64,000 nucleotides of DNA, taken from positions 17,843-81,842 of the forward strand of contig JAUWXV010000001.1 in NCBI GenBank assembly GCA_030616165.1, in the 5' to 3' direction. Within the stretch, counting starts at the first letter, position 1. The number at the start of each line of letters is the position of its first letter. The DNA comes from a bacterium (lineage in GTDB: Bacteria; SM23-31; JAUVVT01). Positions 32,705 through 55,771 of this stretch are shown one piece after another. The notes beneath the pieces were generated by a model that saw only the letters and a list, made by a program, of their open reading frames with translations, was not told the DNA's origin and did not search any database. The translations under genes were made by a program, and so were the position numbers.

Positions 32705-32741
32705 GGAGCAACGGCTATATAAAAGGACAAAATGAATTTTA

Positions 32742-36278: not shown

Positions 36279-36332
36279 GGATTAAATCGAAATTGGTAGA
36301 GACTATTCGAATAATAAATACAGGAGAATAAA

Positions 36333-37001: not shown

Positions 37002-37074
37002 AAAAGAATTTGCAAAGAAAAAAAAAGGATAAAGAGAAGAAAAACTCTTAATAAAATAAAGTATCTGTATTATT

Positions 37075-37179: not shown

Positions 37180-37248
37180 ATACAAATTTGCAAATGTTTT
37201 GTAATTTAAAAAAATAACAAGGATTTTATCTTTTTAACAGACTAAATA

Positions 37249-38653: not shown

Positions 38654-41254
38654 ATGGACTTATTTTTACAAGATGGGGCGAGGGTAGGAATTATAGGTGG
38701 GGGTCCCTCTGGGAGTTTTACGGCTATTCATTTATTGAGCATTGCAGCTTCGCTTAACAAAAAAATTAAGGTATTCATCTTTGATAAAAAAGATTTTACA
38801 TCTGGTTTAGGGTGTAATTTTTGTGCAGGCATTCTTTCTAATACACTAATTAAAGAGTTAGTCCAATATAATATTATTATCCCGCCAGAGATAATCCAAA
38901 GAGAGATTAAAGGATACTATTACGAGACGAGAGAGGGGACAGCATATTTCCCAAAGCCATCTACTTCATCAATTTTCAGTGTGTTCCGAGCAAATGGACC
39001 TTGCAGCTCAAAAGAATTATATAACGTTAGTTTTGACTATTTTCTTCTACAAGAAGCGATTAAAAGGGGAGCAAACAAAATAGACACCAATATCAATGAA
39101 GTCATTTTTCCTTCCACTCCACAGGATCGAGTATCACTTTACTCACAGGAGCAAAATACATATTATGAATTTGAACTGGTATTCGGTGCATTTGGAATAA
39201 ATACTCCTTTTATTAAAGAATTAGAAAAATCAGGAATCGGATACAAAGCCCCAAAATACCTGCATTCTGGTCAGGCTGAGATCCCCTACGATATATCTTT
39301 GAATAAAAAGTTTCATGACAATGTCACTGTTTTTCTTATTCCTCTCAGGAATTTATACTTCTTTTCCTTTACACCAAAAGCAGAGTATTTAACGGTTACC
39401 GCTATTGGTCCTCATGTTACAAAAGCAATGCTGGAGGAAATATTTACCATTCCGCAGGTTATGAAATATTTTCCAGACAAATGGCAGTTCCCATTGGAGT
39501 ATTGTCACTGTCATCCAAGAATATCTGTTACTATTGCGGAAAATTTCTTCTATCACCGTTTTGTGGTTGTCGGAGATGCTTGTTGGTCAAGGTATCTCAA
39601 GGATGGTATTGCATCTGCATTTTATACCTCAAAATTCGGAGTTGAATGTGCTTTCAAATATGGGATTTCACGTAATGCGTTCCGGGACAGATACTTTAGG
39701 GAAATTACTCGGATGGATAAAGATAATACTGTAGGAAAAATTTTATTTAAAATCCATAATAGATTGAAAAGGTCGCAGACTGTGCGGGGCTCTCTTTTTT
39801 CGATGACCAGAGATTACTATCATAAAACAATTCAGGAAAATGTACGATATATCCTATGGGGTTTATTTACAGGTGATTACTCTTATAAGAAGATAATGAG
39901 AAAATCTTTTAGGATTTCATTTATCGTGCCCTTTATTATAAATATTATTAATGCATACCTGAAGATTATCTTTAATAATCTGTCAAAAATTAATAAAAAA
40001 ACAAAATTAAGACCAATAAAAAATCAGAGCAGTAATGTAACAGTGTCAAATTTAGTAAACGGAGATACAATTATTGTTATTGGTGGGGGACCAGCAGGCA
40101 CTTCTTGTGCAATACATGCAAAAAAACTTGCTGTAAATAATAATATAGACTTGTCAGTCATATTAATCGAACCTAAAACTTTTAGCATACATTACAATCA
40201 GTGTGTTGGTGTTCTTTCCCCTAGGATAAAACAATTGATGGGAGATATAGGTATAGACTTCCCGGAACATTTAATTCAAACAAAAATTCCAGGGTATTAT
40301 TTGAATGCAAATGGTGAAGAAATATATCTTCCTTCTGATAAACATAACGATATTGGACTTGCTTTAAGGCGGAATGAGTTTGATGCTTTTATGATAGAGC
40401 AGGCTTTGCGGAACGGAGTACAAGTTGTCCGGGGAGAAGTTGTGACATTCGATTATTCAAAAAATGACAAAAAGAATAAATTCATTGTTTATTGCAATTC
40501 CGGCACTTATAAGTGCAATTTTATTGTAGGTGCTTTTGGTGTCGGGAATGGGATTGCCCTTGATTTTTTTAAAACTTTCCGGTACCGACCTCCACATATT
40601 CTTCAATCAATTGTTTCCAAAATTCATCCTCTGGATAATTTATATATTGATGAAATTTTTGGAAATAATATCCATACTTATCTCCCTAAATATAAAGCAA
40701 TTGAATTTGGAGCAATAACTCCAAAGGGCAACCATTTAACAGTCAATATCGCCGGTGAAAAAATCAGTTTTAAAGATATGGAATATTTTCTAATGATAGA
40801 TGAAGTAAAAAAATGGATTCCCCCCCATAAAGAACGAACTTACTTTAAAGGTCAATTCCCAACAAGTCCTGCACATCGATTCTATGGAGATAATTACTTG
40901 ATCATAGGTGATGCGGCTGGTTTAGTTCGGCCATTTAAAGGAAAAGGTGTAAATTCAGCAATTCTCTCAGGTAAAATTGCTGCTGAAACTATCGTGAATT
41001 ATGGCACAACGGCTCTTGCAATAAAACGAAACTTTGTACAACATCCACAGATACAAAAAATATTAATCGATTATAAATATGGAAAAATTATAAGAAAATT
41101 AACTATTCAGGCTTCACATCATAATCTTTTAAAATATATAATTAATTATGCAAAAAGAAATAAAACGTTCGAAACCGCTCTATATAATGCTGTCTCTGCT
41201 AACAGACTTTATAAGGATATTATTTTATGTACTTTAAGAAACTTAGTGAGTTAA
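38654..41254 (+). CDS. internally duplicated FAD-dependent oxidoreductase (two geranylgeranyl-reductase-like halves)
   Basis: Two GxGxxG dinucleotide motifs (VGIIGGGPSGSFTA at residue 10; IIVIGGGPAGTSCA at about residue 470), separated by a hydrophobic linker. Confidence 0.6.
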   Translation: MDLFLQDGARVGIIGGGPSGSFTAIHLLSIAASLNKKIKVFIFDKKDFTSGLGCNFCAGILSNTLIKELVQYNIIIPPEIIQREIKGYYYETREGTAYFPKPSTSSIFSVFRANGPCSSKELYNVSFDYFLLQEAIKRGANKIDTNINEVIFPSTPQDRVSLYSQEQNTYYEFELVFGAFGINTPFIKELEKSGIGYKAPKYLHSGQAEIPYDISLNKKFHDNVTVFLIPLRNLYFFSFTPKAEYLTVTAIGPHVTKAMLEEIFTIPQVMKYFPDKWQFPLEYCHCHPRISVTIAENFFYHRFVVVGDACWSRYLKDGIASAFYTSKFGVECAFKYGISRNAFRDRYFREITRMDKDNTVGKILFKIHNRLKRSQTVRGSLFSMTRDYYHKTIQENVRYILWGLFTGDYSYKKIMRKSFRISFIVPFIINIINAYLKIIFNNLSKINKKTKLRPIKNQSSNVTVSNLVNGDTIIVIGGGPAGTSCAIHAKKLAVNNNIDLSVILIEPKTFSIHYNQCVGVLSPRIKQLMGDIGIDFPEHLIQTKIPGYYLNANGEEIYLPSDKHNDIGLALRRNEFDAFMIEQALRNGVQVVRGEVVTFDYSKNDKKNKFIVYCNSGTYKCNFIVGAFGVGNGIALDFFKTFRYRPPHILQSIVSKIHPLDNLYIDEIFGNNIHTYLPKYKAIEFGAITPKGNHLTVNIAGEKISFKDMEYFLMIDEVKKWIPPHKERTYFKGQFPTSPAHRFYGDNYLIIGDAAGLVRPFKGKGVNSAILSGKIAAETIVNYGTTALAIKRNFVQHPQIQKILIDYKYGKIIRKLTIQASHHNLLKYIINYAKRNKTFETALYNAVSANRLYKDIILCTLRNLVS

Positions 41255-41320: not shown

Positions 41321-42829
41321 ATGACAAGGAAATTGCCACCCTTATTGTTAAATCCTATTAGTTTAATAGGGATTCTTATTGCTTTGACCAGTTTCATTGC
41401 CATTATAATTCTCTTTTTTGCTCATATTTTTTTAGCACCTGATAATCCATATATTGGAATAGTCACTTACCTGATTTTCCCAATCTTTTTAATAATAGGA
41501 TTACTTATAATTCCCTTCGGTATGTTTATTGAGAGACGGCAACAATTAAAAAGAAAAGGAATAAAAGAACGGCGTCTTCCAATTATCGATTTTAACCAGC
41601 AAGATCAGAGAAACGCTTTTATACTCTTTTTGATAGTTTTAATTATTTTTATGATATTGAGTGCTGTTGGAAGTTACAGAGCTTATGTTTTCACCGATTC
41701 AGTAGTTTTTTGTGGGAAAATCTGCCATTCTATAATGCATCCTGAATATATTACTTACATGGAGAGCCCTCATGCCCGGGTGTCATGTGCTGAGTGTCAT
41801 GTTGGAACAGGAGCCAACTGGTATGCCAAATCAAAGCTTTCCGGTGCATATCAGGTTTATGCTACAATAGCACAAAAATATCCTAAGCCTATTCCAACAC
41901 CTATCAAAAATTTACGACCAGCTCAGGAAACCTGTGAGCAGTGTCACTGGCCAGGGCAATTTTTTGGTGGGAAACAGAAAATATTTACTTATTATTTAAG
42001 TGATGAAGAAAACACCAAGTATGAAATTAATATGTTAATGAAGGTTGGTGGCGGAAATCCAAAATCCAGTAGAACTTCGGGTATTCACTGGCATATGAAT
42101 ATTCAGAATAAGATAGAATTTATATCAACGGATAATAAAAACAAAATTATTCCTTGGATTCGTTCTACTAACCTATTAACTGGGGAAGTAAAAACATTTA
42201 CTGATGAAGAGAACCCACTATCAGAAGAATTATTGTCAAAGAGTAAGCCTCATGTAATGGATTGTATGGATTGTCATAACCGACCAACTCATATCTTTAA
42301 GTCTCCAAGTCTTTCCGTTAATGAAAAAATTCTATTAAATCGAATTAATAAATCATTACCTGAGGTTAAATATATATCTGTTGAACTTCTTTCAGATGAT
42401 TATGAAACAACTGATATTGCAGTGAACACAATTGCCGAAGAGATTTGGAAATTTTACAGAGAAAATTATCCCAAGGTTTTTGAAAAGGAAAGGGATAGTA
42501 TAAAACAATCAATCAGAGAATTGCAGGAGATTTATCAGAGGAATATTTTTCCAGAAATGGGTGTAAAGTGGTCAGTTTATCCTGACCACATTGGACATCT
42601 TGATTTCCCGGGTTGTTATAGATGTCATGATAATAAACATATTACGGAATACGGAGACCGACTGGCGAATGATTGTAATCAATGTCACACAATTTTGTCG
42701 CAGGAGTTTGGAGGCGAAAAAGAAGAGACTCTCGACCCAAAAGGAATAAAATTTAAACATCCAGTTGATATTGGAGATGACTGGAAATTAGTAGGATGCC
42801 ATGAATGTCATACAGGATTAAATCCTTAA
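41321..42829 (+). CDS. inner-membrane heptahaem c-type cytochrome, ImcH-like (NapC/NirT-related quinol dehydrogenase)
   Basis: Three N-terminal TM helices. Seven haem motifs (CGKICH, CAECH, CEQCH, CMDCH, CYRCH, CNQCH, CHECH). Confidence 0.7.
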   Translation: MTRKLPPLLLNPISLIGILIALTSFIAIIILFFAHIFLAPDNPYIGIVTYLIFPIFLIIGLLIIPFGMFIERRQQLKRKGIKERRLPIIDFNQQDQRNAFILFLIVLIIFMILSAVGSYRAYVFTDSVVFCGKICHSIMHPEYITYMESPHARVSCAECHVGTGANWYAKSKLSGAYQVYATIAQKYPKPIPTPIKNLRPAQETCEQCHWPGQFFGGKQKIFTYYLSDEENTKYEINMLMKVGGGNPKSSRTSGIHWHMNIQNKIEFISTDNKNKIIPWIRSTNLLTGEVKTFTDEENPLSEELLSKSKPHVMDCMDCHNRPTHIFKSPSLSVNEKILLNRINKSLPEVKYISVELLSDDYETTDIAVNTIAEEIWKFYRENYPKVFEKERDSIKQSIRELQEIYQRNIFPEMGVKWSVYPDHIGHLDFPGCYRCHDNKHITEYGDRLANDCNQCHTILSQEFGGEKEETLDPKGIKFKHPVDIGDDWKLVGCHECHTGLNP

Positions 42830-42910: not shown

Positions 42911-44137
42911 TTATTGAGAAGATTCCTTTGCAATAGAAGACAGAGGTGTTGTTGCAGCTTCAGGCCATGGCGGAAGGATTTTTATGATTATATACAATAC
43001 GAATAGTGGAAGAAATAATAATGCAATGGATATCAAAAGACCTTCGATTCCTAAAAGTTCCATCTTATAATGGGTTAGTCCTCGAAGGCTTTTCGAGAAT
43101 AATTGACCACCTATCACGACGTTCCACCTTGTGCTGAATATCCCAATTTGAACTAAAATTGCCGCTCCAAAATAGATTAACCTACGTAACTCATCGGGGA
43201 GCCGGAATAGTTTTACAGATGCTAATGAACCCAAAGGCAGTAAAGTTCCCAGGAGTATTTGAATTACAACAAGACTTATAAACAATTTTTGTGATATCAA
43301 CTGGCCTAAAATGTGGATGGATTCAACAGACTCATACATCCGGTGGATAAAATCCAGGGTCTCGAGAGAAATATCAAGTATCATCGCATACAGCAGAAAT
43401 GACGCCAGTTTGTCCATGCATGCCATATCGATTGGTTTCCAACGAAAAAGGGTTGTTACACCATATATCAGGATCATCAACGCGATTCCTGAAACAATAG
43501 CCGAAAACAGAAATACAATAGGCATCAACACGCTGCTCCACCAGGGATTTGCCTTCACGGAGCCAAAAATAAAACCTACATATCCATGCAGTAAAAATGC
43601 TGACGGGATACCGATTATGGTAATAAACTTTCCTGCTTTACGGTCAAATCGTATTGCCTTTTCGGACAGGTCCAGTGAGCCTAATGAAAGAAGATAGTAC
43701 ATATACTTTCGCCATCCTTTTTTACTCCGAGCCCAATAAACGATGTCCTTCCTATAATCAAACCATATTTCGAGCATTAACACTATCATCAAGTACCAGG
43801 CGTAAACAAATCCGAACATTGCCATTGCTGACTTTAATTGAGGAGTGAGAAAAATTTCAATTGACCGTTCGGGGTAACTAAGGTGTGCAAGGAGCGGAAG
43901 TGGGGCTATGATCAGAAATGCCAGCGCAGTCAACATAGACAGGCGGTATGTAGGTTGAACTTCTTTTACTTCAAAAACACGCTCCAGTGAAGCAAGGATG
44001 AATGCCCCTGCGACAAGCCCTGTGATATATGGATATACGACTATCAAAATCCCCCAATGGAGTTCCACCTCGTTTGGATAAATATACCCAACCACTTGTT
44101 TTAAGATTGGCTGTAGTTGTTCGATTAAATTTTCCAT
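42911..44137 (-). CDS. NrfD/PsrC-type polytopic quinone-interacting membrane subunit
   Basis: About 10 TM helices with NrfD-like organisation; 2 bp downstream of the FeS subunit gene. Confidence 0.75.
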   Translation of the reverse strand: MENLIEQLQPILKQVVGYIYPNEVELHWGILIVVYPYITGLVAGAFILASLERVFEVKEVQPTYRLSMLTALAFLIIAPLPLLAHLSYPERSIEIFLTPQLKSAMAMFGFVYAWYLMIVLMLEIWFDYRKDIVYWARSKKGWRKYMYYLLSLGSLDLSEKAIRFDRKAGKFITIIGIPSAFLLHGYVGFIFGSVKANPWWSSVLMPIVFLFSAIVSGIALMILIYGVTTLFRWKPIDMACMDKLASFLLYAMILDISLETLDFIHRMYESVESIHILGQLISQKLFISLVVIQILLGTLLPLGSLASVKLFRLPDELRRLIYFGAAILVQIGIFSTRWNVVIGGQLFSKSLRGLTHYKMELLGIEGLLISIALLFLPLFVLYIIIKILPPWPEAATTPLSSIAKESSQ

Positions 44138-44139
44138 AA

Positions 44140-44898
44140 TTATCTCACTTCCCCATCCAAGTTAGCGTAATAAATTTTTGGTTCCGTATTAAGATGAGGT
44201 TTCAGAACCTGGACTTTGTTGAAACGCATGAATCGGGCTAATAGGCTGCTGCGCAAACCGATCTCGCCAAATATCCTCGCTTCGGTTGGACAAACTTCAA
44301 CACAAGCGGGCTTTAGACCCCGGGATAAACGATGATAGCAGAATGTACATTTTTCCGCCGTACTGGTCACAGGGTTAAGAAACCTTGCTCCGTACGGACA
44401 TGCCTGAATACAATAACGACACCCGAGGCAGTAATCTTTATCGATCAATATCACTCCATCCTTAGTGATAAATGTAGCACCTACCGGACATACCTGCACG
44501 CATGGTGGATTAGCACACTGGTTGCACAATTTTGGCACAAAGAAGGTCCGCATGATCTCATTTTCGGCAACCATTTCAGGAAAACCCTCACTTCCCCCAT
44601 TTGGGCTATCAACCTGTGCTGTCCCATCAATAAGAATTATGTACCGCTCAACCCAAGTCCGGAAAAAGAATGGTTCACGAGGTACATCATTTTCCCGCTT
44701 ACATGCATCTACACACTGTCCACAACCGATGCACTTGTCGACCTGAATTCCCATCCCGTATTGATGTATTGGTTCATTATCATTTGATGAATCAGAATCT
44801 TCTGAAGCAGGAGACCCGAATAATAACAGTACGGTTCCTACAAGTGTGCTTTCCCGTAGAAACTCTCGGCGATTCATCAATTCACGTTTCTTTTTCAT
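44140..44898 (-). CDS. Tat-exported 4x[4Fe-4S] ferredoxin subunit (NrfC/PsrB/DsrO-like)
   Basis: MKKKRELMNRREFLRESTLVG Tat signal. Four CxxCxxCxxxCP clusters. Start set at ATG 44898 (ATGA overlap with the upstream cytochrome stop). Confidence 0.85.
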   Translation of the reverse strand: MKKKRELMNRREFLRESTLVGTVLLLFGSPASEDSDSSNDNEPIHQYGMGIQVDKCIGCGQCVDACKRENDVPREPFFFRTWVERYIILIDGTAQVDSPNGGSEGFPEMVAENEIMRTFFVPKLCNQCANPPCVQVCPVGATFITKDGVILIDKDYCLGCRYCIQACPYGARFLNPVTSTAEKCTFCYHRLSRGLKPACVEVCPTEARIFGEIGLRSSLLARFMRFNKVQVLKPHLNTEPKIYYANLDGEVR

Positions 44899-45764
44899 CA
44901 GCGCACCTCCGGATAATGTGGATAATGACATTGCCAGCACGCATGATCAGGCTCATGTGACTGAAGGTCCACCCGCGGTATTTCCCCGGCACTTTCTGCA
45001 TTTTCTCCATGACAACCACCGCAAAATGTTCTCTTCCGTGGTTTACTGGGACGAAATGACCGGGGATCTTTTTTATGTGCTTCAGGAGCAGAGTGACACT
45101 GGGTACACTCCAGGGCAGCATGGTGTGAGACAGCTTTTGTCCGCGCAATTTCCCCGTGACATGCTCCACATTCCTCAGGGGGTTGCGGAGGTTTGGGATC
45201 ATGGGGTTCGTGACAAGACATACAGGGTTCTAAAGGATTATGTGTGACTATATTAATTTGGGGGAATCCCGTTGGCTTGGACGCATTATATATATGACAG
45301 AGGGGACATAAACCCCGCTGACGTGGAGCCGAAGGAGTATTTTCGCTGGGATCCTCAACATGGTTTGCACCTGGCCCATGGCATACTTCGCAGGCAACAT
45401 TCTGATGATAAGATGTTTGTTTTAACGCTACATATTCATCGTGACACTCTGAACACGCTTCCTGCCCAGCATAATGGATTGGAAGAGCTAATATAGAATC
45501 TATGGCAGCTGCTCGGTAGTGTCCCTCTTTTACAAAGGTGGGCGGCATTAAGTAATTCCGGACGGTAATGAGCATTATCACTAAAATAATAAAAATAATA
45601 AGTAAGCGTTTTATTTGGTCTGGAAAAGGAATTGATTTCCAGCCCGGCATTCTTAATTCTGGACGAAATCGAAAATTTAACATGTTTTTTGTCTGAATCA
45701 GCTTTTTAATATCAATTAAGTAATGAAAAACGAGATAATGAAAAATTTCATGGAATTTTAACAA
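44898..45764 (-). CDS. membrane-anchored octahaem c-type cytochrome
   Basis: TM helix LLIIFIILVIMLITV. Eight CxxCH motifs (CSECH, CEVCH, CPLCH, CMSCH, CGACH, CTQCH, CGGCH, CWQCH). The true start is probably an internal Met. Confidence 0.8.
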   Translation of the reverse strand: MLKFHEIFHYLVFHYLIDIKKLIQTKNMLNFRFRPELRMPGWKSIPFPDQIKRLLIIFIILVIMLITVRNYLMPPTFVKEGHYRAAAIDSILALPIHYAGQEACSECHDEYVALKQTSYHQNVACEVCHGPGANHVEDPSENTPSAPRQRGLCPLCHIYNASKPTGFPQINIVTHNPLEPCMSCHEPHDPKPPQPPEECGACHGEIARTKAVSHHAALECTQCHSAPEAHKKDPRSFRPSKPRKRTFCGGCHGENAESAGEIPRVDLQSHEPDHACWQCHYPHYPEVR

Positions 45765-46047: not shown

Positions 46048-46110
46048 TTGACTTTTTTAAAAAAAAATTATATTATTAAGAAAAATTTCATACTTAATAA
46101 CCAAACGATA

Positions 46111-46551
46111 ATGGAAGAGAGAAACACATCAAGAAAGAGTTTTATTAATTACCTGTTAGGCGGTGGTTTTACTCTTGTCGCAGCTTCTTTCTTATATCCA
46201 ATAGTGAGGTTCGTGCTCCCTCCAAAATCGACCGAAGCAGAACCTATGGCAGTATCTGCTGGCAAGGTTGGCGAGATGCATTTAAATTCTGGGAAGATAT
46301 TTAAATTTGGAAGAAAACCTGGTCTGCTTATTTATACAGAACAGGGTGAATATCAGGCATTTATGGCAACCTGTACACATCTTGACTGCATTGTGCAATT
46401 CCGAAATGATTCTGAAAGCATCTGGTGTGCTTGCCATAATGGATATTATGACCTTAATGGAAATAATATATCTGGTCCGCCCCCAAGACCCTTAGAAAGA
46501 CTGAATGTTTTTATAAAAGATGATGATATAATGGTTTCAAAAATTACTTAA
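46111..46551 (+). CDS. Rieske [2Fe-2S] iron-sulfur protein
   Basis: CTHLDC...CACHNG Rieske boxes and N-terminal TM/Tat-like anchor. Start at ATG 46111. Confidence 0.85.
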
Positions 46552-46552
46552 A

Positions 46553-47626
46553 ATGAAGACCTACACAACCAATCTCATTAATTGGCTTGATAAAAGATAC
46601 AACATAAAAGAAATAATAGGATTTATTACAGAAAAGAAGGTCCCTATTTACAAACACACTATCTGGTATTATATGGGAGGGATAACCCTTCTTTTTTTTA
46701 TCATTCAGGTTTTAACTGGCATACTTCTTCTTCTCTATTACCGACCTACTCCTGAGGAGGCATTTGAAAGTGTTCAATTTATTATGACACAGGTTCACTA
46801 CGGATGGCTTATCCGCTCTATTCACAGTTGGTCAGCAAATCTTATGATTCTTTTTGCATTTATACATATGTTCAGTGTATTACTCCTGAAATCTTACAGA
46901 CCTCCACGTGAACTAACATGGGTAACCGGTGTGCTGTTAATGTATATATCTCTTGCTTTTGGCTTCACGGGTTATCTCCTTCCGTGGAATGAATTGTCCT
47001 TTTTTGCCACAAAAGTTGGTACTGACATAGCGGGAGTTATTCCTTTTATTGGAAAATTCATTATTAGATTCCTGAGAGGTGGAGAAGACGTTACAGGAGC
47101 GACCTTGACGAGACTCTTTGGATTTCATGTTGCTGTCCTTCCAGGAGTAATCATTGTGATTTTGGTTATACATTTATTGATGGTTCAACGACAGGGAATG
47201 AGCAAACCGATAGGCTTAAAAGAAGTGAAGAAGGGGATGCTATTTTTCCCGGACTTTTTTTTAAGAGACCTTTTAGGATGGCTATTTGCAGTTGGGATTC
47301 TTGCAGCTCTGGCTGCTATCTTTCCCTGGGAACTGGGGCAGAAGGCAGACCCATTTTCATCTGCTCCAGAAGGCATCGCGCCTGAATGGTATTTTTTATT
47401 TATGTTTCAAACATTAAAATTCTTCCCCGCAAGAATATTAATTTTAGACGGCGAAGTGATTGCAGTCTTTATTTTCGCAGCACTCGGAATATTCTGGATT
47501 CTAATCCCATTTCTTGATACTAAAGCCAGAAGGGAACAAAAAAGCCCGATATTTACAACTATAGGTATTTTTGCAATTCTATACGTGGGGATAATTACTA
47601 TACTTTCTTATTTTGTATTTAAGTAA
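46553..47626 (+). CDS. cytochrome b (fused b6/subunit IV-type) of a Rieske/cyt b complex
   Basis: [38 protein letters not shown] (haem-ligating His helices), PEW motif region. Confidence 0.9.
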
Positions 47627-48933
47627 TGTATTCGCATAATCTTATGAAAAATATTATTAGACATTTCAACATTATTTACATACTATTTTTATTTATTTTT
47701 CTCTTCCCCGCTATATATTTATTTCCACAAGAAAGGCACAATAATTGTATCGAATGCCACAGTAAATTCGAAGAAGAAGAGACATCGCCAACCATTGAAT
47801 TTAAAAATGATATCCATAATACAAGTGGTATGTTATGTTCTGACTGTCATGGTGGAGACCCGGAAATAAATGCAGGTGGAAATCAAGAACTTGCTATGAA
47901 TCCTAAAAAAGGATATAAACCACCTCCGGGTCATAACGAAATCCCCGAATTCTGTGCAAGATGCCATTCTGATTTTGAATATATGAAAAAATTTAATCCC
48001 AATATAAGAGTAGACCAATATGAAAATTATTTAACAAGTCAACACGGGAAATTACTGGCAAAGGGAGATGATAAAGTAGCTAATTGTGTTAGTTGTCATA
48101 AAACCCACGGGATTCGAAAAAAAACAAACCCTGCCTCAGCCGTTTTTGCAAACAAAATTCCGGAAACTTGTAGTAAATGCCACTCAGACCCGGAATATAT
48201 GAAGGAATATAAAATCCTGACTAACCAGTTGGAAATGTATAAAAAAAGTGTTCACGGGGAATTTTTATTGGAAAAAGGGGACTTAAATGCTCCTGCTTGC
48301 AATGACTGCCACGGAAATCACGGTGCCGCTCCCCCGGGTGTCGAATCTGTACACAATGTCTGCGGAGTATGTCACTCAGGAAATAATCAGTTGTTCTTAA
48401 AAAGTTCTCATAAAAAATACTTTGATGAATTTGGCTTTCCAGAATGTGCATCATGTCATGAACATCATTTAATAAAAAAACTTACAGAAGAATCTCTCGG
48501 GGTTGGAGACCAATCTGTTTGCGGAATTTGTCATACACAAGAAGATGAAGGAGGTATAATCGCTGTTGAAATGAAAAATATTATCGAAAATTTTTCTGCA
48601 CTGCGGGATACTTGCCAAATATTGTCCGAAGAGGTAGAAAGGAAGGGTATGCCCGTTAATGAAATAAAATACCAGATGAACAATGTTGACTCTGAACTGT
48701 TAAAAGCAAGAAATATAGTGCATAGTTTTTCTCTGGAAAATATAAAACAAATAACTGAAGAAGGAACAAAACTTGCCATCTCTGTAAAAAAAATGGCAAA
48801 TGATGAATTAAAAGAATATCAAATTAGGAGAATAGGACTGGCTGTCTCGCTTTTCTTTATTTTTTTAGCGGGAACCGCCCTCTATTTGAAAATCAAGAAG
48901 ATAGACAAAAAAAATATAATAAATTCTTTTTAA
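47626..48933 (+). CDS. nonahaem c-type cytochrome with N- and C-terminal membrane anchors (cytochrome c subunit of the Rieske/cyt b complex)
   Basis: Nine CxxCH motifs. C-terminal TM IGLAVSLFFIFLAGTALYL. 1-bp overlap with the cyt b stop. Confidence 0.8.
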   Translation: MYSHNLMKNIIRHFNIIYILFLFIFLFPAIYLFPQERHNNCIECHSKFEEEETSPTIEFKNDIHNTSGMLCSDCHGGDPEINAGGNQELAMNPKKGYKPPPGHNEIPEFCARCHSDFEYMKKFNPNIRVDQYENYLTSQHGKLLAKGDDKVANCVSCHKTHGIRKKTNPASAVFANKIPETCSKCHSDPEYMKEYKILTNQLEMYKKSVHGEFLLEKGDLNAPACNDCHGNHGAAPPGVESVHNVCGVCHSGNNQLFLKSSHKKYFDEFGFPECASCHEHHLIKKLTEESLGVGDQSVCGICHTQEDEGGIIAVEMKNIIENFSALRDTCQILSEEVERKGMPVNEIKYQMNNVDSELLKARNIVHSFSLENIKQITEEGTKLAISVKKMANDELKEYQIRRIGLAVSLFFIFLAGTALYLKIKKIDKKNIINSF

Positions 48934-49298: not shown

Positions 49299-52076
49299 AT
49301 GAAATCAAGACTTTTAGCTTTAATTGCGATAAGTATTCTCAGTATGTTTATAATCAAAATATTAATTGCCCAAAGTTCTGAACCAACTGCAAAGATTAAA
49401 CTCGATTTTGTTACCTCGCATAAGATTGACGTTGATACGGCTTTGACATCCACAGGGAAAGCCTCAGGGCTGAATAATGTAGGTGTCGGTGAAACTGTTT
49501 ATCCGGTGGGTGTTGCTACCGGTACGAATATTACTTATCAGTGGTCTATTGATGGACCGACAGGTTCTTCAGCAACTTTAAGCAGTACTATCGAAGACAG
49601 TATACACTTTCAGCCGGACGTAGAAGGGATTTATATATTAACTCTCACGGTTACTGCTGATGAAGGAACAGCAACTTCCTCAATCAAGGTTCAGGCGGCG
49701 AAATATATAGGTGTTGGAAAAATTGATGGTCTTAAGTCTGAATTTCCTCAGTGTGGCATAGGATGCCATTATACTATTTATGACAAATGGATTCAAACAG
49801 GACATGCTACAGCATTCAGCAGGAAACTGGATGAAGAAGGCGGACATTTCGGTTCAAATTGTATAGATTGTCATTCAATAGGTTATAATACACTTACTAA
49901 TGCGGTTAATAATGGATTTGATGATATAGCAAGTAGCCTTGGATGGACCTTCCCTGATACCTTAAAATCGGGAAATTGGCAGAATATGATAAACAATTAT
50001 CCCTCACTTGCCCAGAGAGCAAATATACAATGTGAAAATTGCCATGGTCCAGGCAGCGGTCATAATTTTAAAGATGGTCCAATTGAAGAATCCGGTATCG
50101 GTAAGACCTATGAGCCTGGTATTTGTGCATATTGTCATGATGCTCCTACTCACCATGTGTATTTTCCTGAGTGGGAAAAAAGCGGTCATAATACAGTAGA
50201 TGATCACATGAATAGTTCATCATGTGCCAAATGCCATACAGGGAAGGGTTTTGTAATCCAAAATATAAGAGGTGAGGCATCTGAAGCACCTTATGTTGAG
50301 GGTGCGGCTGTTACTTGTGCAGCCTGTCATGACCCTCACGATGCTACAAATGAACATCAATTACGGAAAGTTTCGAATGTTACACTTAATGATGAAACAA
50401 CAGTGGTTTCTGAAGGAGGATTGGGAAAACTTTGTATGAACTGCCATCTTTCAAGAAGAGATGCAGAAGAATATGTAACTAAATATCATAGTCATTTTGG
50501 CCCTCATCACTCGAATCAAACAGATATGTTAGTTGGTGCAAATGCTATAGAGTTCGGGCTCTCCATGCCGGAGACTGGACATATCAAAGCAGTTGAAGAT
50601 GCTTGTGTCACATGTCACATGGCAGAACAGCCAAAAGAAAATAAAGATGAAGGTATATCCAAGGTTGGTTCGCATACTTTCAGTATGGTTAGCACCGTTG
50701 GAACTGATACAACTTACAATGTTGAGATATGTCAGGGCTGTCACGGCAGTGAAATTGAAAAATTTGAAGATGTAAAAGCATCTTCGGATTATGATGGTGA
50801 TGGCACGATAGAAGGAGCTGTAGCGGAAGTTGAAGGTTTAATGCATCAATTGGGAATGCTTCTTCCACCATTAGATGAGCCTGGAGTTTCTGTAGCTAAA
50901 GATTATACTCCTGTACAGCTTAAGGCTGCGTATAACTATGAATTCGTTGATGATGATGCAAGCCATGGAGTTCACAATACATCTTATACAGTTGCAATTT
51001 TGAAGGCTGCAATTCAGGCAATTTCTACTGGAGATATTGGAGCGGGCAGTATTATAGCAATTGATGATGTTCCTAACGACCAGGGGAAACAGGTACGAAT
51101 ACGTTGGAATCGTTTTTCGGGAGATGGAAAATTAGACAATCCTATTGGGAAGTACGGAATATGGCGGCGTATCGATGATATGAGTTTGGCAAAGAATGCT
51201 AATACTGTTTCATCTTATGAGGATATGTTCAATAGTCTGGAAAAAATTTCTGAAGGAAGTCAATTCGTGGTCACTGAAAGCGGAGAACTCTGGGATTTTG
51301 AAAAAGAAGTCTCTGCAGTCGGGGAAGACAAGTACAGCACAATTACTGCTACGCTTTTTGATTCTACAATTACAGATGGCATGCACTGGTCTGTTTTTTA
51401 CATTTCTGGTCATTCACTCGAAGGTGGATTAGTTGTGAAATCTGCTGTGGACAGTGGTTATTCAGTTGATAATTTGGCACCTGCAGTACCTGTTCTAAAG
51501 ATAGCATCAAAAACAGCCGGTATGGTTACTGTAGAATGGGATGCTCCTGTGGATGAGGACTTCAAATACTTCAATGTATATCGGGGAACAGAGCAGGGGT
51601 TTGACCCTGCGACTGTTGAGCCAATTTTGAGAAGGGTAGATGCTGAATTCACCGAAAATCTTTCTGCTGTTGGTGAAAAATATTATTACAGGATTAGTGC
51701 TGTGGATTTCAGTGGGAACGAATCAGGATTTTCACTGGAAATTTCTGAGGATAACGTAATAACCAGTCTTGAACTTGGTAATATCAGTAGTATCCCAGGA
51801 AAGTTCGCTCTGGAACAGAATTATCCGAACCCATTTAACCCGATAACACATATACGTTATCAACTGCCAAAAAGTACTAATGTCACTCTACATATATATG
51901 GTATCACCGGTAATCTGATTCGTACTCTTGTCAGCGAATACCAGCACCAAGGTTTTATAGAGGTTGAATGGAATGGAAAGGATGATTTTGGTAGCTCGGT
52001 AGCATCTGGAATTTATATTTATAGAATTACAGCAGGGAAGTTCTCGGATAGCAGAAAAATGATTCTCATAAAATAA
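49299..52076 (+). CDS. secreted nonahaem c-type cytochrome with beta-sandwich region and T9SS C-terminal sorting domain
   Basis: Signal peptide. Nine haem motifs (CGIGCH, CIDCH, CENCH, CAYCH, CAKCH, CAACH, CMNCH, CVTCH, CQGCH). C-terminus LEQNYPNPFNPITHIRYQLPKSTNVTLHIYGITGNLIRTLV...GIYIYRITAGKFSDSRKMILIK matches the Por/T9SS CTD consensus. AGGAGG RBS. Confidence 0.8.
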   Translation: MKSRLLALIAISILSMFIIKILIAQSSEPTAKIKLDFVTSHKIDVDTALTSTGKASGLNNVGVGETVYPVGVATGTNITYQWSIDGPTGSSATLSSTIEDSIHFQPDVEGIYILTLTVTADEGTATSSIKVQAAKYIGVGKIDGLKSEFPQCGIGCHYTIYDKWIQTGHATAFSRKLDEEGGHFGSNCIDCHSIGYNTLTNAVNNGFDDIASSLGWTFPDTLKSGNWQNMINNYPSLAQRANIQCENCHGPGSGHNFKDGPIEESGIGKTYEPGICAYCHDAPTHHVYFPEWEKSGHNTVDDHMNSSSCAKCHTGKGFVIQNIRGEASEAPYVEGAAVTCAACHDPHDATNEHQLRKVSNVTLNDETTVVSEGGLGKLCMNCHLSRRDAEEYVTKYHSHFGPHHSNQTDMLVGANAIEFGLSMPETGHIKAVEDACVTCHMAEQPKENKDEGISKVGSHTFSMVSTVGTDTTYNVEICQGCHGSEIEKFEDVKASSDYDGDGTIEGAVAEVEGLMHQLGMLLPPLDEPGVSVAKDYTPVQLKAAYNYEFVDDDASHGVHNTSYTVAILKAAIQAISTGDIGAGSIIAIDDVPNDQGKQVRIRWNRFSGDGKLDNPIGKYGIWRRIDDMSLAKNANTVSSYEDMFNSLEKISEGSQFVVTESGELWDFEKEVSAVGEDKYSTITATLFDSTITDGMHWSVFYISGHSLEGGLVVKSAVDSGYSVDNLAPAVPVLKIASKTAGMVTVEWDAPVDEDFKYFNVYRGTEQGFDPATVEPILRRVDAEFTENLSAVGEKYYYRISAVDFSGNESGFSLEISEDNVITSLELGNISSIPGKFALEQNYPNPFNPITHIRYQLPKSTNVTLHIYGITGNLIRTLVSEYQHQGFIEVEWNGKDDFGSSVASGIYIYRITAGKFSDSRKMILIK

Positions 52077-52184: not shown

Positions 52185-53288
52185 ATGAGTACGAATAAAT
52201 TACGAAAGTTATTACTGTGTATCTCATTAATAGGATTAGGAGCATTCTCATGCAGTGAGTTAGATATTAATAATCCTTTAACATATATAAATGATAAAAT
52301 ATCTTATGAAAAAGATATAAAACCTATTTTTGCGAATAGATGTATAGATTGTCATAGTGGAAGTTCGCCTGCAGGAAATTATAACCTTTCTTCCATATTA
52401 ACGATTATGGGGAACGGTACAGACTTGAAACCGAATGTAATTATCGGAAGTCCATATAGTCTTCTTCTGATGAAGATTATTATAGGGGACGATAACCACC
52501 GTGAGTGGATAGGCTCTGAAGAAAACACTCAAAAATTGTATAAATGGATAGTTGAGGATAGTTTGAGCATCAGTGAGCCGATTGTGCATCTTGCTGGACC
52601 TATGGATGTGGATTCACCAAATTTTCATGGACAGGATATTAGAAATAAAGCGTGGTCTATGGAATCATGTAAGCTCTGTCATGGAACTGACTATAATGGG
52701 GGTTCCTCAGAGGGTTCCTGTAACAAATGTCACGATCCAAACCCGGAGGAATGCACTACTTGTCATGGTTTTGGTATGCTTGATAATCATTTGGGAGCAC
52801 CACCTCCTGATCTGAGTAACAACATCGAGACTTCTTTTAGAGGAGTTGGCGCTCACACAATACACATGACAGAGGGCGATAATTCCGATGGTATTGAATG
52901 TGAATCCTGTCACATTGTTCCCCAAAATTTGTACGATGATGGTCATATTTTTTCTGAAGAGCCTGCAGAAGTTGTTTTTAGTTATCTTGCACATAATTTA
53001 GGAGCAGAACCAATCTGGGACACTGAAACCCTGACCTGTAAAGATGTTTACTGTCATGGAAATTTCCCTTCAGGAAACAAGGAGAATGCTCCAAAATGGA
53101 CTGGCTTTGATCCGAATCCACCGAGTTGTTCTCCTGCCTGCCACCAGTTTCCTCCTGTTGGTAAAACACGAACCGGTTTTAAACACTCTCCCAGTGTTTC
53201 TCAATGCTGGTACTGCCATTCCAATCTTGATAATAAATATAATTTTATTGATAAGTCAACTCATATTAATGGAATTATTGAAAGATGA
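52185..53288 (+). CDS. octahaem c-type cytochrome, probable lipoprotein (OmaB-like periplasmic component)
   Basis: Signal peptide ending GAFSC. Eight haem motifs including CxxxCH/CxxxxCH variants (CIDCH, CKLCH, CNKCH, CTTCH, CESCH, CKDVYCH, CSPACH, CWYCH). Confidence 0.7.
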   Translation: MSTNKLRKLLLCISLIGLGAFSCSELDINNPLTYINDKISYEKDIKPIFANRCIDCHSGSSPAGNYNLSSILTIMGNGTDLKPNVIIGSPYSLLLMKIIIGDDNHREWIGSEENTQKLYKWIVEDSLSISEPIVHLAGPMDVDSPNFHGQDIRNKAWSMESCKLCHGTDYNGGSSEGSCNKCHDPNPEECTTCHGFGMLDNHLGAPPPDLSNNIETSFRGVGAHTIHMTEGDNSDGIECESCHIVPQNLYDDGHIFSEEPAEVVFSYLAHNLGAEPIWDTETLTCKDVYCHGNFPSGNKENAPKWTGFDPNPPSCSPACHQFPPVGKTRTGFKHSPSVSQCWYCHSNLDNKYNFIDKSTHINGIIER

Positions 53289-54580
53289 ATAAACTCATAA
53301 GTGTTAAAATTATTTTGTTATATTTAATCTTTACAATTCTGCCATTATATGAGAATTATGGTCAGGTTATTACGGGAAGAGTGTCATCGTATATGTACAG
53401 CTGGCAAATTCAGGACCAACAGTCAGGTTCCTCTGAACATATTCGTTTGTATCAAACCCTTGTTATGAATGTTAAAAATGTTGGGAGCCCAAAAGTCTCT
53501 TTGCATACCAATATACGCTATACGAAGGACTTCATTAATGATAGCGATTACAATCACAATTGGAAATTTCAATATTTTTATGGACAGGTAAAAAAGGTTC
53601 TTCAAGTAGCAGATATTAAATTTGGTCGGCATTATGTATATTCTGGCGTTGGCAATGGTTCAATTGACGGGATTTCTACAAAGATAAAAGTAAAAGAAAT
53701 TGCTGATTTTGAATTTTATGGCGGAATGCCTGTTTCATGGTATCATGAAATAAAGGTCCAGAAATGGAACGAGAGTAGAATGTATGGATTACGAATACAG
53801 CCGAGAATGTTCTTGAATACATTGGTGAGTATAAGTTATGTTCAAAAAAAGATGAATCCCCTCCCTTATAAGATTCCTGGGAAGTTTACTTTCAAAAAAT
53901 GGGATATAACTTCTGATGCAGTGGAATTTGTTGGATTGGATTTCTATACTCAATGGTCTGAAAAAACGAGCGCGTATGGCCGCCTCGATTGGGATATGAC
54001 GTATGATGACATTTATCGGATAAATTTTTATTATAACAGGTCGCTCTTCAATAAATTTTCTCTCAGTGCTGAATACTACTATAGAAAACCGCGGATTTAT
54101 AATAATTCGATTTTTAGTGTGTTTGCTCAGCACGATAACCGAGAATACTGGTTTCGAATTTATTATAATATTAAAGAAAATCTGTCTGTATCCGGCGGAA
54201 CATCAATTGTTATTTATTCGGGAGATAAGGGATATCGACATAATGTAAGTATATATTCAAATCGTTTTAGTATTGGCTATAATCATACAAGCGGTTACAG
54301 CGGTAGATTGGATGGATTAACAGGAAGCGTTAATTATCCGATAAGAAATAATATATGGCTGAAGGGCGGTACAAATATTTCACGATACAAGCTGTTTGAA
54401 CATCTTGAAGACTTTGAAAATGTGTTAAGTACGTTTGCAGGAATTTCAATAATGCCCAAAAAAACTTGTACGCTGGATATCGAAGGGCAGGGATTACATA
54501 ATTATAATCACAGCAGTGATTTTCGGATACTTTTGAGAGCTAACTGCTGGTTTTCATTTGGTAAAATACGGAAAAATTAA
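53285..54580 (+). CDS. outer-membrane beta-barrel (porin-like) protein embedded between cytochrome genes
   Basis: Signal peptide. Dyad-repeat beta-strand pattern, aromatic girdle residues, no Cys/haem motifs. 4-bp overlap with the upstream cytochrome gene. Confidence 0.55.
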   Translation: MNKLISVKIILLYLIFTILPLYENYGQVITGRVSSYMYSWQIQDQQSGSSEHIRLYQTLVMNVKNVGSPKVSLHTNIRYTKDFINDSDYNHNWKFQYFYGQVKKVLQVADIKFGRHYVYSGVGNGSIDGISTKIKVKEIADFEFYGGMPVSWYHEIKVQKWNESRMYGLRIQPRMFLNTLVSISYVQKKMNPLPYKIPGKFTFKKWDITSDAVEFVGLDFYTQWSEKTSAYGRLDWDMTYDDIYRINFYYNRSLFNKFSLSAEYYYRKPRIYNNSIFSVFAQHDNREYWFRIYYNIKENLSVSGGTSIVIYSGDKGYRHNVSIYSNRFSIGYNHTSGYSGRLDGLTGSVNYPIRNNIWLKGGTNISRYKLFEHLEDFENVLSTFAGISIMPKKTCTLDIEGQGLHNYNHSSDFRILLRANCWFSFGKIRKN

Positions 54581-54592
54581 GGTGTTTATTAC

Positions 54593-55771
54593 ATGACACA
54601 TGTGAAAATAATCAAAACTGTTAAATGGGTTTTTTTCTTTTTTATTGTTTATTATGGAAGTTATTACTCTATAATTGCTGCTCAAAAAAATTCTATTATT
54701 TTTTCTCATAAACTGCATATCGAAGATATAGGAGCAGAATGTGTTGATTGTCATTCAACCATCCCGGAAAGTCAGGAAATGGATGATAAAAATCTACCAA
54801 AACATGAAGAATGCTTTATGTGTCATGATGATGATATAGCATCTCAAAAATGCGGTACTTGTCATTCTGATCCGGATAATCCCGAACCGTTGGAAAATCC
54901 AATTCGTGAATTTTATTTCAACCATGTATTTCATATCAAGGAACAAAATATGGAATGCGATAATTGTCATCAGGGATTGGAAAAAGTTGACTATGCACAG
55001 AAAGAAAATCTCCCGAGTATGGAACAATGTTATCAATGTCATGATGGTGTGACAGCATCGCAAAGATGTGAAGATTGTCATACACCTACAGCTCGCCTGA
55101 TTCCAATGACTCACACCCCTGACTGGAAATTAATTCATAAGCATTCATCAAATTTAATAGAATCAGAATGCATGACATGCCACCAAGAGAATTATTGTGA
55201 AGATTGTCATACGGGAACACGATTGCTGGAAATTGGAAATGAAGATAAAGACTATGTTAATCCCAACATTCCTTCGAGTGAAGGGAAAAAGAATATGGTT
55301 CTTCAAAGGGTGCATGAACTTAATTATCGTTACACACATGGAATTGATGCTAACGATAAAAAACTGAATTGTTCTTTTTGCCATCAAGAAACACAATTTT
55401 GCGTTAGATGTCATCAAGAAGAAGAAAAGATAAATATTTTAAAACCTTCCTGGCATTCAGGACCGGAATGGGGTGCTATTGTTGAAGCAGTGGGTTCAGG
55501 GGGAGGAAGGCATGCTCGGCTTGCCAGGAGAGACATTGAAAGATGTGCAGCCTGCCATGATTCACAGGGAGAAGACCCTGTTTGTCTTATGTGTCATAGA
55601 GATTTTCTTCCAGGAAGAGGAAATGATTTAAGAACACATTTTATAGGAATGTTTTCTGGGGCAGGAGAGGGAGCATGGCATGTTGATGAAGGTTCTATAT
55701 GTTTTAATTGCCATGTAAATTCTATGACACCCGGTGTGGGATTTTGCGGATACTGTCATAGCATCAAATGA
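54593..55771 (+). CDS. 14-haem c-type cytochrome (OmcB-like outer component)
   Basis: N-terminal signal/anchor; 14 CxxCH motifs in 392 aa. Confidence 0.8.
   Translation: MTHVKIIKTVKWVFFFFIVYYGSYYSIIAAQKNSIIFSHKLHIEDIGAECVDCHSTIPESQEMDDKNLPKHEECFMCHDDDIASQKCGTCHSDPDNPEPLENPIREFYFNHVFHIKEQNMECDNCHQGLEKVDYAQKENLPSMEQCYQCHDGVTASQRCEDCHTPTARLIPMTHTPDWKLIHKHSSNLIESECMTCHQENYCEDCHTGTRLLEIGNEDKDYVNPNIPSSEGKKNMVLQRVHELNYRYTHGIDANDKKLNCSFCHQETQFCVRCHQEEEKINILKPSWHSGPEWGAIVEAVGSGGGRHARLARRDIERCAACHDSQGEDPVCLMCHRDFLPGRGNDLRTHFIGMFSGAGEGAWHVDEGSICFNCHVNSMTPGVGFCGYCHSIK

Follow-up and report, generated by a model that had tools for sequence, protein, structure and literature searches.

In a 64,000-nucleotide stretch of bacterial DNA (contig JAUWXV010000001.1 of assembly GCA_030616165.1, positions 17,843 to 81,842 of the forward strand; GTDB lineage SM23-31), hereafter called the window, three adjacent genes encode a Rieske protein, a cytochrome b and a c-type cytochrome with nine haem-binding motifs, the nonahaem cytochrome. 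We consider it fairly probable that their products form a menaquinol:multihaem-cytochrome c oxidoreductase, in which a b6-like Rieske/cytochrome b core of the 'green' type carries the nonahaem cytochrome as a subunit replacing cytochrome c1 or f, and which feeds extracellular electron transfer. That the nonahaem cytochrome is the third subunit is argued from its near-universal linkage to the other two genes, its co-divergence with cytochrome b and its topology, which resembles that of cytochromes c1 and f.

The three-gene unit

The unit comprised the following features.

46048..46551, + strand: Rieske open reading frame (ORF) as listed, 167 amino acids (aa) if TTG 46048 is the start
46111..46551, + strand: Rieske [2Fe-2S] subunit, 146 aa from ATG 46111
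46553..47626, + strand: cytochrome b gene, 357 aa, a single ORF
47626..48933, + strand: gene of the nonahaem c-type cytochrome, putative third subunit, 435 aa
46048..46076, + strand: promoter-like site TTGACT-17-TATTAT upstream of the Rieske gene (consensus match only; the promoter type of the host may differ)

Read from the DNA, the Rieske stop codon (TAA) was followed after one base by the ATG of the cytochrome b gene, and the stop codon of cytochrome b and the start codon of the nonahaem cytochrome had one base in common (TAATG). A sequence-only reading made before this analysis had described a nonahaem cytochrome of 435 aa with a C-terminal transmembrane (TM) anchor and a 1-bp overlap with the cytochrome b gene, and this was borne out by the ORFs, the junctions and the motif count. 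The promoter-like site contained the TTG that the ORF finder had chosen as the start of the Rieske gene. TTG 46048 was rejected as the true start, since homologues aligned from residues 1-8 of the version beginning at ATG 46111; this and the position of the TTG inside the promoter-like site indicate that the start is probably ATG 46111. A sequence scan found no terminator-like site 3' of 48933. The next gene began 365 bases past this position and had its own strong promoter-like site at 49027-49056. The three genes of the unit are probably co-transcribed. That the operon ends with the nonahaem gene, as had also been claimed, is plausible given the promoter-like site of the next gene, although no terminator-like site backs it.

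The Rieske/cytochrome b core

Judged by its sequence, the core is a member of the Rieske/cytochrome b superfamily of the 'green' type and neither a cytochrome b6f proper nor a cytochrome bc1 proper. The Rieske product matched the Pfam family Rieske (E 3e-9) and the PetC-type TM anchor family TM_PetC, and its top NCBIfam matches were b6f PetC models, under their cut-off. It had a single N-terminal TM anchor and both [2Fe-2S] boxes of the Rieske proteins of the bc superfamily (CxHxxC ... CxCH), in the form CTHLDC and CACHNGYY. Among 64 family members the boxes read CTHLxC and C[AP]CHNGx[YF]. This consensus lacked the Ser that marks high-potential Rieske boxes of the CPCHGS type, which predicts a low-to-middle potential, fit for menaquinol.

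Cytochrome b matched the Pfam families Cytochrome_B (N-terminal b/b6 domain, E 3e-56) and Cytochrom_B_C (C-terminal b/subunit IV domain). In it, a b6-like part of four helices was fused, without a split, to a subunit-IV-like part of three helices, and 7 TM helices were predicted in all. The closest solved relatives of residues 6-220 were cytochromes b6 of chloroplasts and cyanobacteria (E 7e-63), and residues about 240-347 best matched solved subunit IV; full-length bc1 cytochromes b ranked lower. It bore the marks of a cytochrome b of the bc superfamily, with a pair of His on each of helices B and D and, in the C-terminal part, a Qo motif. The b-haem ligands were His91/His105 and His192/His207 with 13 and 14 residues between them, a b6-type spacing, and the Qo motif was PEWY at residues 277-280, as in 65/71 family members. 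The haem-ci site CxGG read YYMGG in the window and YYxGG in the family, with Cys in 0/71 members. The unsplit cytochrome b of 357 aa, the absent haem-ci Cys and the absent cytochrome f separated the core from a strict cytochrome b6f. Its seven rather than eight TM helices, the His spacing of 14 on helix D, where bc1 has 13 for both pairs, and the nine-haem c subunit in place of a monohaem cytochrome c1 separated it from a strict cytochrome bc1.

The window cytochrome b was 58-62% identical to the cytochromes b of metagenome-assembled genomes (MAGs) that were labelled NC10 and Chloracidobacterium and carried the same trio of genes. A 'Chlorobi/NC10/Acidobacteria' clade of cytochrome b has been described, which resembles the window in its PEWY motif, its long unsplit b and its Rieske proteins of the low-to-middle-potential type (Kao & Hunte 2014, PMC4122944); a multihaem partner is not described for the clade in that paper. 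The window cytochrome b appears to fall in or beside this clade, a placement by identity to labelled MAGs rather than by a reference tree.

The nonahaem cytochrome

Four regions were delimited in the nonahaem cytochrome.

47671..47727, + strand: N-terminal hydrophobic segment, Sec signal peptide or signal anchor (residues 16-34; hydropathy)
47731..48540, + strand: periplasmic haem domain with nine CXXCH (residues about 36-305)
48547..48831, + strand: three long helices, a stalk or bundle (residues 308-339, 345-367 and 370 onward; AlphaFold2 secondary structure)
48832..48888, + strand: C-terminal TM anchor (residues 403-421; hydropathy; conserved in the family)

The CXXCH motifs lay at residues 41, 71, 110, 154, 182, 225, 246, 274 and 299, and the motif count found no CXXCK and no CX3-4CH in the protein. 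All nine were invariant across 55 homologues, so their number is not due to chance. The Pfam matches were to generic multihaem models only (c7, c3, doubled CXXCH). The haem domain contained two internal di-haem repeats (CxxCHSDxxYM ... SxHG ... CxxCHxxHG). In the alignment, homologues carried A-x-A|Q cleavage-like sites at the N-terminal hydrophobic segment, and the C-terminal anchor was followed by a Lys-rich cytoplasmic tail. The topology, an N-terminal signal and a C-terminal TM helix with a positive-inside tail, is that of cytochromes c1 and f.

The 55-sequence alignment yielded eight invariant His that are candidate distal ligands (64, 140, 161, 210, 232, 262, 281 and 366). Position 91 was Met in 53 and Lys in 2 of the sequences, and Met120 and Met192 were also conserved. 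The invariant His366 was located in the helical stalk and an invariant Arg401-Arg402 pair directly before the membrane. By this pattern of conservation, the eight His and Met91 can provide nine six-coordinate haems. The haem served by Met91, by its position probably haem 2, may instead be open, as is haem 2 in OcwA, a surface cytochrome of Thermincola potens.

An AlphaFold2 model based on the same alignment (mean predicted local distance difference test score, pLDDT, 89.9; predicted template modelling score, pTM, 0.78) consisted of a haem-rich domain followed by helices 308-339, 345-367 and 370-434, the last of which extends into the membrane anchor. This haem domain with a C-terminal three-helix bundle is the body plan of NrfA, c554 and the octahaem cytochromes. 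Foldseek found no match to the model at E<1 in the PDB (best E 1.1), and a single-sequence phmmer search of the protein against the PDB gave no significant match. The family profile matched PDB sequences marginally: NrfB at 9e-4, OcwA at 1e-3, NrfA at 4e-3 and hydroxylamine oxidoreductase (HAO) at 1e-2. OcwA (PDB 6I5B; second-best profile match), which acts in extracellular electron transfer, shares with the window protein the nine CXXCH and the haem domain with a C-terminal three-helix bundle (PMC6703420). The protein had no CXXCK and no PF02335 among its Pfam matches, and its likeness to NrfA is at the level of the fold only. Members of the HAO family have eight haems, one of them five-coordinate and catalytic (P460 with a Tyr cross-link in those that oxidize); the window protein had nine haem motifs, and no HAO-specific family was among its Pfam matches. 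On the model, the nonahaem cytochrome distantly resembles the NrfA/c554/octahaem superfamily and would be a membrane-anchored offshoot of it from which the catalytic signatures of NrfA are absent.

Family size and gene linkage

A search of 5.8 billion proteins gave 4,078 matches to the nonahaem protein, mostly at E about 1e-120, the best annotation among which was 'cytochrome c3 family protein'. A second search, with an 11-haem relative as the seed, gave 5,382 matches at E<=1e-30. A profile search of 1.84 billion cluster representatives returned 1,128 clusters (50% identity) at E<=1e-30 and 3,422 at E<=1e-10; at 90% identity the family comprised >5,000 clusters. No NCBIfam model matched the nonahaem protein, and a homologue search aimed at named isolates returned MAGs only. 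The family fell into two size classes, one of 430 aa with nine haems and one of 490 aa with eleven haems, in which one extra di-haem repeat was inserted (CxxCH-SD-xx-YM ... SxHG ... CxxCH-xx-HG). The 11-haem form was mostly found in Ignavibacteria and had the same type of Rieske/cytochrome b operon, and tandem-doubled forms of about 760 aa also occurred. Proteins of about 925 aa with 19 haems clustered with the family and were encoded beside the module. The 11-haem, doubled and 19-haem variants were seen among homologues P0049, P0125 and P0169 and loci L008, L014, L028 and L072. The copy in the window is an ordinary member of a common, uncharacterised family.

A scan of one genome per species gave at least 587 loci, 80 of which were compared (all locus counts refer to these 80). 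Linkage was assessed by tblastn with the Rieske protein and cytochrome b of the window and by clustering of the ORFs in the flanks. The Rieske and cytochrome b genes adjoined the nonahaem gene in about 75/80 loci, every one with enough flank; the exceptions were contig ends and two loci in which the Rieske gene alone was detected. The linkage spanned >10 phyla, including KSB1, Acidobacteriota, Gemmatimonadota, Zixibacteria, NC10, Aminicenantes and Ignavibacteria, and the closest matches of the window in both sequence and synteny were KSB1 MAGs. The gene order was Rieske-b-cytochrome in KSB1, Aminicenantes, Blastocatellia/Pyrinomonadaceae, Zixibacteria, Ignavibacteria and Omnitrophota, and cytochrome-Rieske-b in Gemmatimonadota, NC10, Rokubacteria, Binatia and some 'delta' lineages. 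When 53 complete trios were compared, the pairwise distances correlated with r=0.92 between cytochrome b and the nonahaem cytochrome and with r=0.85 between the Rieske protein and cytochrome b. The former value stems in part from shared species history and is supporting evidence, not proof.

The sequence-only reading had proposed that the nonahaem cytochrome takes the place of cytochrome c1 or f, which gained support from the gene coupling, the linkage, the co-divergence and the C-terminal anchor. It had further taken bc complexes with multihaem c subunits to be characteristic of Geobacter and anammox bacteria. Instead, the module belongs to a widespread family of its own.

The electron-transfer island of the window

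Genes for electron transfer lay on both sides of the unit.

41321..42829, + strand: ImcH-like inner-membrane cytochrome, 502 aa (Pfam/NCBIfam matches, motifs, hydropathy)
42911..45764, - strand: octahaem cytochrome (288 aa), NrfC/DsrO-like 4Fe-4S protein (266 aa) and NrfD-like subunit (408 aa) (Pfam/NCBIfam)
49299..52076, + strand: multihaem cytochrome, 925 aa, with 8 CXXCH and 1 CX4CH; PKD, FlgD-Ig and a type IX secretion system (T9SS) C-terminal sorting domain
52185..55771, + strand: porin-cytochrome trio of a 367-aa cytochrome, a 431-aa barrel and a 392-aa 14-haem cytochrome (NCBIfam, motifs, AlphaFold2)

The ImcH-like protein had TM helices at residues 15-33, 45-63 and 99-117, a NapC/NirT/NrfH-like region (Cytochrom_NNT and NrfH matches), a first haem motif of the form CX3CH (CGKICH) and then six CXXCH. 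It thereby matched the architecture published for ImcH of Geobacter, down to the unusual CX3CH at the first position (PMC4251993). Directly upstream of its gene, an 866-aa protein (38654..41254, + strand) had two FAD domains of the geranylgeranyl-reductase family and a weak MenJ-like match, and may modify the side chain of menaquinone.

In the group of three genes on the opposite strand, the NrfC/DsrO-like 4Fe-4S protein bore a Tat-type signal. The annotated GTG start of its gene created a 43-base overlap with the cytochrome gene and was probably placed too far upstream. By sequence, this NrfCD-type group would be a further quinone-interacting module, making three in the island with the ImcH-like protein and the Rieske/cytochrome b unit.

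The 925-aa cytochrome with the T9SS sorting domain is likely located at the cell surface. For a terminal reductase, the T9SS would be an uncommon way to the cell surface. In the porin-cytochrome trio, the 367-aa cytochrome had a Geobacter-type CxxxxCH/CxxCH domain and a lipoprotein-like signal. No Pfam family matched the 431-aa protein. Its AlphaFold2 model, built with 37 homologues, was all-beta with about 24 strands (pLDDT 85), and Foldseek matched the model to usher pores, AlgE and Occ porins with E down to 2.5e-11. The all-beta model and the porin and usher matches identify it as an outer-membrane barrel.

The island was bounded on both sides by genes of other functions. Upstream, a cluster of genes for sulfur assimilation and cysteine (30406..38430, + strand), located behind an Rrf2 regulator, encoded a Thi4-like protein, two PALP enzymes (one a TusA fusion), a small sulfite/nitrite reductase, a PAPS reductase, a hexapeptide transferase and a Cys/Met enzyme dependent on pyridoxal phosphate (PLP); as sulfur-assimilation and cysteine genes, the genes at 30-38 kb were ruled out as part of the island. 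Past 55.9 kb there were thiamine and oxidoreductase genes unrelated to it. The 553-aa ORF at 55898 had been considered as a DUF2339-like membrane protein that trails the module in 7 loci, and was rejected since it is of the ThiN/AIR-synthase type. Elsewhere, the segment 20001..22000 had a G+C content of 0.495 versus about 0.36 for the window; it lay in or near an 802-aa ORF (19301..21709) and contained no rRNA or Rfam match. An Rfam scan of the whole window found no RNA family.

Neighbours of the unit in related loci

One or more additional cytochromes with at least four haems each were encoded in 64/80 loci (167/817 flanking ORFs). This supports the earlier proposal that the unit wires the quinone pool to a multihaem network. 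ImcH-like homologues occurred within 6 kb of the module in 16/80 loci, and the octahaem/NrfC-like/NrfD-like trio was near it in 6-7/80. The porin-cytochrome trio followed directly after the Rieske-b-cytochrome genes in one locus (L084), with a stop/start overlap with the cytochrome gene, and was also present in the KSB1 locus with the synteny closest to the window (L006). In the cultured Rosettibacter firmus (L086, JAYKGJ010000003.1, 6919..13485), the trio was paired, in place of a Rieske/b unit, with a CbcL-like fusion of 814 aa, composed of a multihaem cytochrome and a b domain of the Ni_hydr_CYTB or b561 type. From this, CbcL-like proteins and the Rieske/b/nonahaem unit seem to be interchangeable as inner-membrane feeders of one kind of conduit. 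A full haem-biosynthesis operon followed in the Rosettibacter firmus locus.

The partners of the module differed by lineage. Just upstream of it, Blastocatellia loci encoded a 10-haem cytochrome and a protein of 745 aa that, by its sequence alone, is a putative beta-barrel. In Gemmatimonadota and NC10 the neighbours were tetra-domain class I cytochromes c. A conserved larger cluster was found in Blastocatellia/Pyrinomonadaceae (L010, L015, L023, L029, L033, L038, L041 and L046-L048), in which the Rieske-b-nonahaem genes were preceded by the genes for the 10-haem cytochrome and the 745-aa protein and followed 3' by genes for anchorless 8- and 9-haem paralogues, a tetrahaem and a monohaem cytochrome, and a 650-aa nonahaem protein. 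It has the appearance of an electron-export system, unexpected in soil Acidobacteriota.

Comparison with known systems

The Geobacter Cbc system had been named in the sequence-only reading as an analogue. Cbc-type complexes (CbcL, CbcBA) join a HydC/FdnI-like cytochrome b to a multihaem cytochrome c and have no Rieske protein. The unit in the window, with its true Rieske protein and its cytochrome b of the b6/subunit-IV type, is more aptly compared with the Rieske/cytochrome b cluster ExtKLMNOPQS of Geobacter (GSU2930-2937), which encodes the Rieske protein ExtO, the cytochrome b ExtP, the membrane protein ExtQ, the 10-haem ExtN and the 12-haem ExtM and lies next to the porin-like ExtI. It resembles the window in that large multihaem cytochromes and a porin-like protein of the outer membrane are encoded together with a Rieske/cytochrome b core (PMC2825233, PMC5877670). 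However, ExtP is short (23 kDa) with a separate ExtQ, and the window cytochrome b scored 219 bits against the NCBIfam ExtP model, under the cut-off of 290. The Ext cluster is also tied to selenite/tellurite reduction and to a rhodanese, and the nonahaem protein of the window had no NCBIfam match.

Two complexes of the anammox bacterium Kuenenia stuttgartiensis (Kuste4569-4574 and Kustd1480-1485) likewise contain a b6-like cytochrome b, a subunit IV and a Rieske protein, and a TM-anchored hexa- or octahaem cytochrome c replaces cytochrome f; one of these cytochromes has long helices around the complex, and one complex also bears an HAO-like octahaem protein (PMC12954380). In the anammox complexes b6 and subunit IV are split, and both haem cN and a subunit of the NAD(P) oxidoreductase kind are present. 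Cytochrome b of the window is unsplit and has no haem-ci Cys, and the unit has no such extra subunit; the multihaem subunits were compared by description. With b6f and bc1 complexes the window shares the Rieske boxes, the four b-haem His, the Qo motif and a c subunit on one C-terminal TM helix, and it has 7 TM helices and, between the His of helix D, the 14 residues typical of b6. It differs from them in the lack of cytochrome f or c1 and of the haem-ci Cys, in being unsplit (versus b6f), in having no eighth helix (versus bc1) and in having nine c haems instead of one. The complex of green sulfur bacteria has no multihaem subunit and uses cytochrome c-556 (PMC10172866).

Rieske/cytochrome b cores with multihaem partners are thus already known from anammox bacteria, Geobacter and Zixibacteria RBG-1, in the last of which PetAB lies inside an Mtr cluster (PMC3903129). 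As a general evolutionary idea, they were also put forward by Dibrova 2013, as cited in PMC5317091. A 2017 successor to Dibrova et al. 2013 did not mention multihaem partners of bc complexes. Searches of the literature on nonahaem cytochromes with Rieske proteins, on Melioribacter and on petAB with multihaem cytochromes gave no description of the subunit, though an earlier mention in Dibrova 2013 is possible. As far as we found, the nonahaem protein has not been described elsewhere as a single family conserved with a Rieske/b core in >10 phyla. Its recurrence beside ImcH-like genes and porin-cytochrome conduits is also new, as would be, on the model, an NrfA/OcwA-type body plan whose third bundle helix has turned into a membrane anchor.

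Proposed function and alternative explanations

We hypothesize that quinol is oxidized at the Qo site with its PEWY motif. One electron would pass to the Rieske [2Fe-2S] cluster and, by its mobile head, to the haem chain of the nonahaem subunit, which would stand on its helical stalk above the C-terminal anchor. The other electron would cross the membrane via haems bL and bH to the Qi site, in an energy-conserving Q cycle. From the nine-haem wire, electrons would reach periplasmic multihaem cytochromes and, downstream, the porin-cytochrome conduit and the T9SS-exported surface cytochrome, and finally an extracellular acceptor of fairly high potential. It is from genes and models that we infer the status of the cytochrome as a stable subunit, the transfer from the Rieske protein to it, the Q cycle, the direction and the final acceptor. 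The quinol oxidases ImcH, CbcL and CbcBA of Geobacter are potential-specific (PMC4251993; bioRxiv 10.1101/2021.04.15.440034). By analogy, the three quinone modules in one island suggest that the Rieske-based one serves the acceptors of highest potential.

Several points weigh against this proposal. The subunit role, the haem potentials and the activity are predictions from genes and models. The promoter scan covered sigma-70-type promoters only, and the region behind 48933 lacks a terminator-like site. The energetics of the first transfer are a further difficulty. Bis-His haems are usually more negative than a Rieske protein of low-to-middle potential. Without the tuning of one haem, for instance by His/Met ligation, the transfer could therefore be uphill. 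With the Rieske cluster at about +100 to +200 mV, the haem that it reduces has to lie at a similar or higher potential, and a His/Met haem at Met91 would solve this. A low-to-middle potential is what the CACHNGYY box, without Ser, predicts (general knowledge and PMC4122944). With eight invariant distal His for nine haems, one haem may also be open and catalytic. Finally, among the hosts, Blastocatellia, Gemmatimonadota and NC10 are not known as metal respirers and the partners there are class I c-type-like, so the extracellular role may be specific to the lineage of the window.

Electrons could also flow through the same complex in reverse. Drawn from a donor outside the cell, be it Fe(II), a cathode or a partner cell, they would pass through the conduit and the nonahaem wire to the Rieske protein and the quinone, either as an uphill step at the expense of the proton-motive force or in a complex that is simply reversible. 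No sequence feature sets the direction, and many carriers belong to aerobic soil lineages. For Zixibacteria RBG-1, the authors favoured Fe(II) oxidation as the role of the cluster with PetAB and Mtr genes (PMC3903129), and a locus from this genome (L014) has the module together with an ImcH-like gene. However, the window itself encodes an ImcH-like protein, and ImcH of Geobacter is required for the reduction of high-potential acceptors (PMC4251993). Among the genes examined there was also no Cyc2-type or other dedicated marker of Fe(II) oxidation, which is absence of evidence only. On balance, we regard reverse flow as unlikely.

Alternatively, the nonahaem protein might be an enzyme of the NrfA/HAO/octahaem group with one open haem, which acts on nitrite, hydroxylamine, NO or a sulfur oxyanion with the Rieske/b core as its quinol-side partner, comparable to the anammox complex with an HAO-like subunit. 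The profile matches to NrfB, OcwA, NrfA and HAO (E 1e-3 to 1e-2) are consistent with this, as is the fact that nine haems face only eight invariant distal His, with Met91, which is Lys in 2/55 sequences, as the remaining candidate. OcwA shares the body plan; two of its haems are open, and it reduces nitrite slowly (PMC6703420). A few relatives were named 'nitrite reductase c552' by NCBI's pipeline. Against an enzyme stand the missing CXXCK, the lack of PF02335 or an HAO-specific family among the Pfam matches and the Foldseek search with no PDB match at E<1. In addition, each di-haem repeat supplies its own two distal His, and the neighbouring genes encode cytochromes and porins, not enzymes of the nitrogen or sulfur cycle. 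Membership of a nitrite or hydroxylamine oxidoreductase family, which the sequence-only reading had itself named as its counter-case, is contradicted for NrfA by the absent CXXCK and PF02335, and we think an enzymatic role improbable.

Least probable, by a small degree, is that the nonahaem cytochrome is co-expressed but no subunit, a membrane-tethered diffusing carrier that collects electrons from several quinol oxidases (ImcH-like, NrfCD-type and Rieske/b) while Rieske/b forms a two-subunit core. The presence of three quinone modules in one island would fit, and the green-sulfur-bacterial complex, which has no bound c1 or f, sends its electrons straight to the reaction-centre side, the haem partner studied being cytochrome c-556 (PMC10172866); its cytochrome b clusters with NC10 and Acidobacteria sequences (PMC4122944). 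Against a free carrier, the link to Rieske/b is near obligatory compared with the ImcH-like gene (16/80) and the NrfD trio (6-7/80), the cytochrome b and nonahaem genes are translationally coupled, co-divergence with cytochrome b is tighter for the cytochrome (r=0.92) than for the Rieske protein (r=0.85), and the Arg-Arg pair and stalk residues at the membrane interface are invariant.

Implications

More broadly, and tentatively, a Rieske/b6-type core with a nonahaem subunit of the NrfA superfamily might constitute a widespread class of quinol oxidase that has so far gone unrecognised and that serves extracellular and periplasmic multihaem networks from the inner membrane; we hold this to be possible but doubtful in its full extent. 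A 2018 genomic survey of quinol oxidases in extracellular electron transfer (CymA, CbcL and ImcH) did not mention Rieske or bc1 complexes (PMC6295460). If the idea holds, the new class would be the only one alongside CymA, ImcH and CbcL with an energy-conserving Q cycle, and its users would include KSB1, Zixibacteria, Ignavibacteria, Acidobacteriota, Gemmatimonadota and others. The second haem, with Met/Lys or open coordination, may be the high-potential entry point from the Rieske protein or a catalytic site. In the latter case, the unit would be a non-anammox counterpart of the anammox complexes of Rieske/b and HAO-like proteins.

Outside Shewanella and Geobacter, extracellular electron transfer is mostly inferred from outer-membrane cytochromes, and the step by which electrons leave the quinone pool is usually unknown. 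If the proposal is correct, the trio of genes would be a marker of this inner-membrane step in many uncultured phyla of sediment and soil, and proton pumping by the Q cycle would alter estimates of the energy yield of metal respiration or of the cost of Fe(II) oxidation. The unit would also be an example from nature in which the Rieske cluster hands electrons to a wire of haems rather than to one haem of high potential. It would tie the complex III lineage to which green sulfur bacteria, NC10 and Acidobacteria belong to the NrfA/HAO superfamily of cytochromes.

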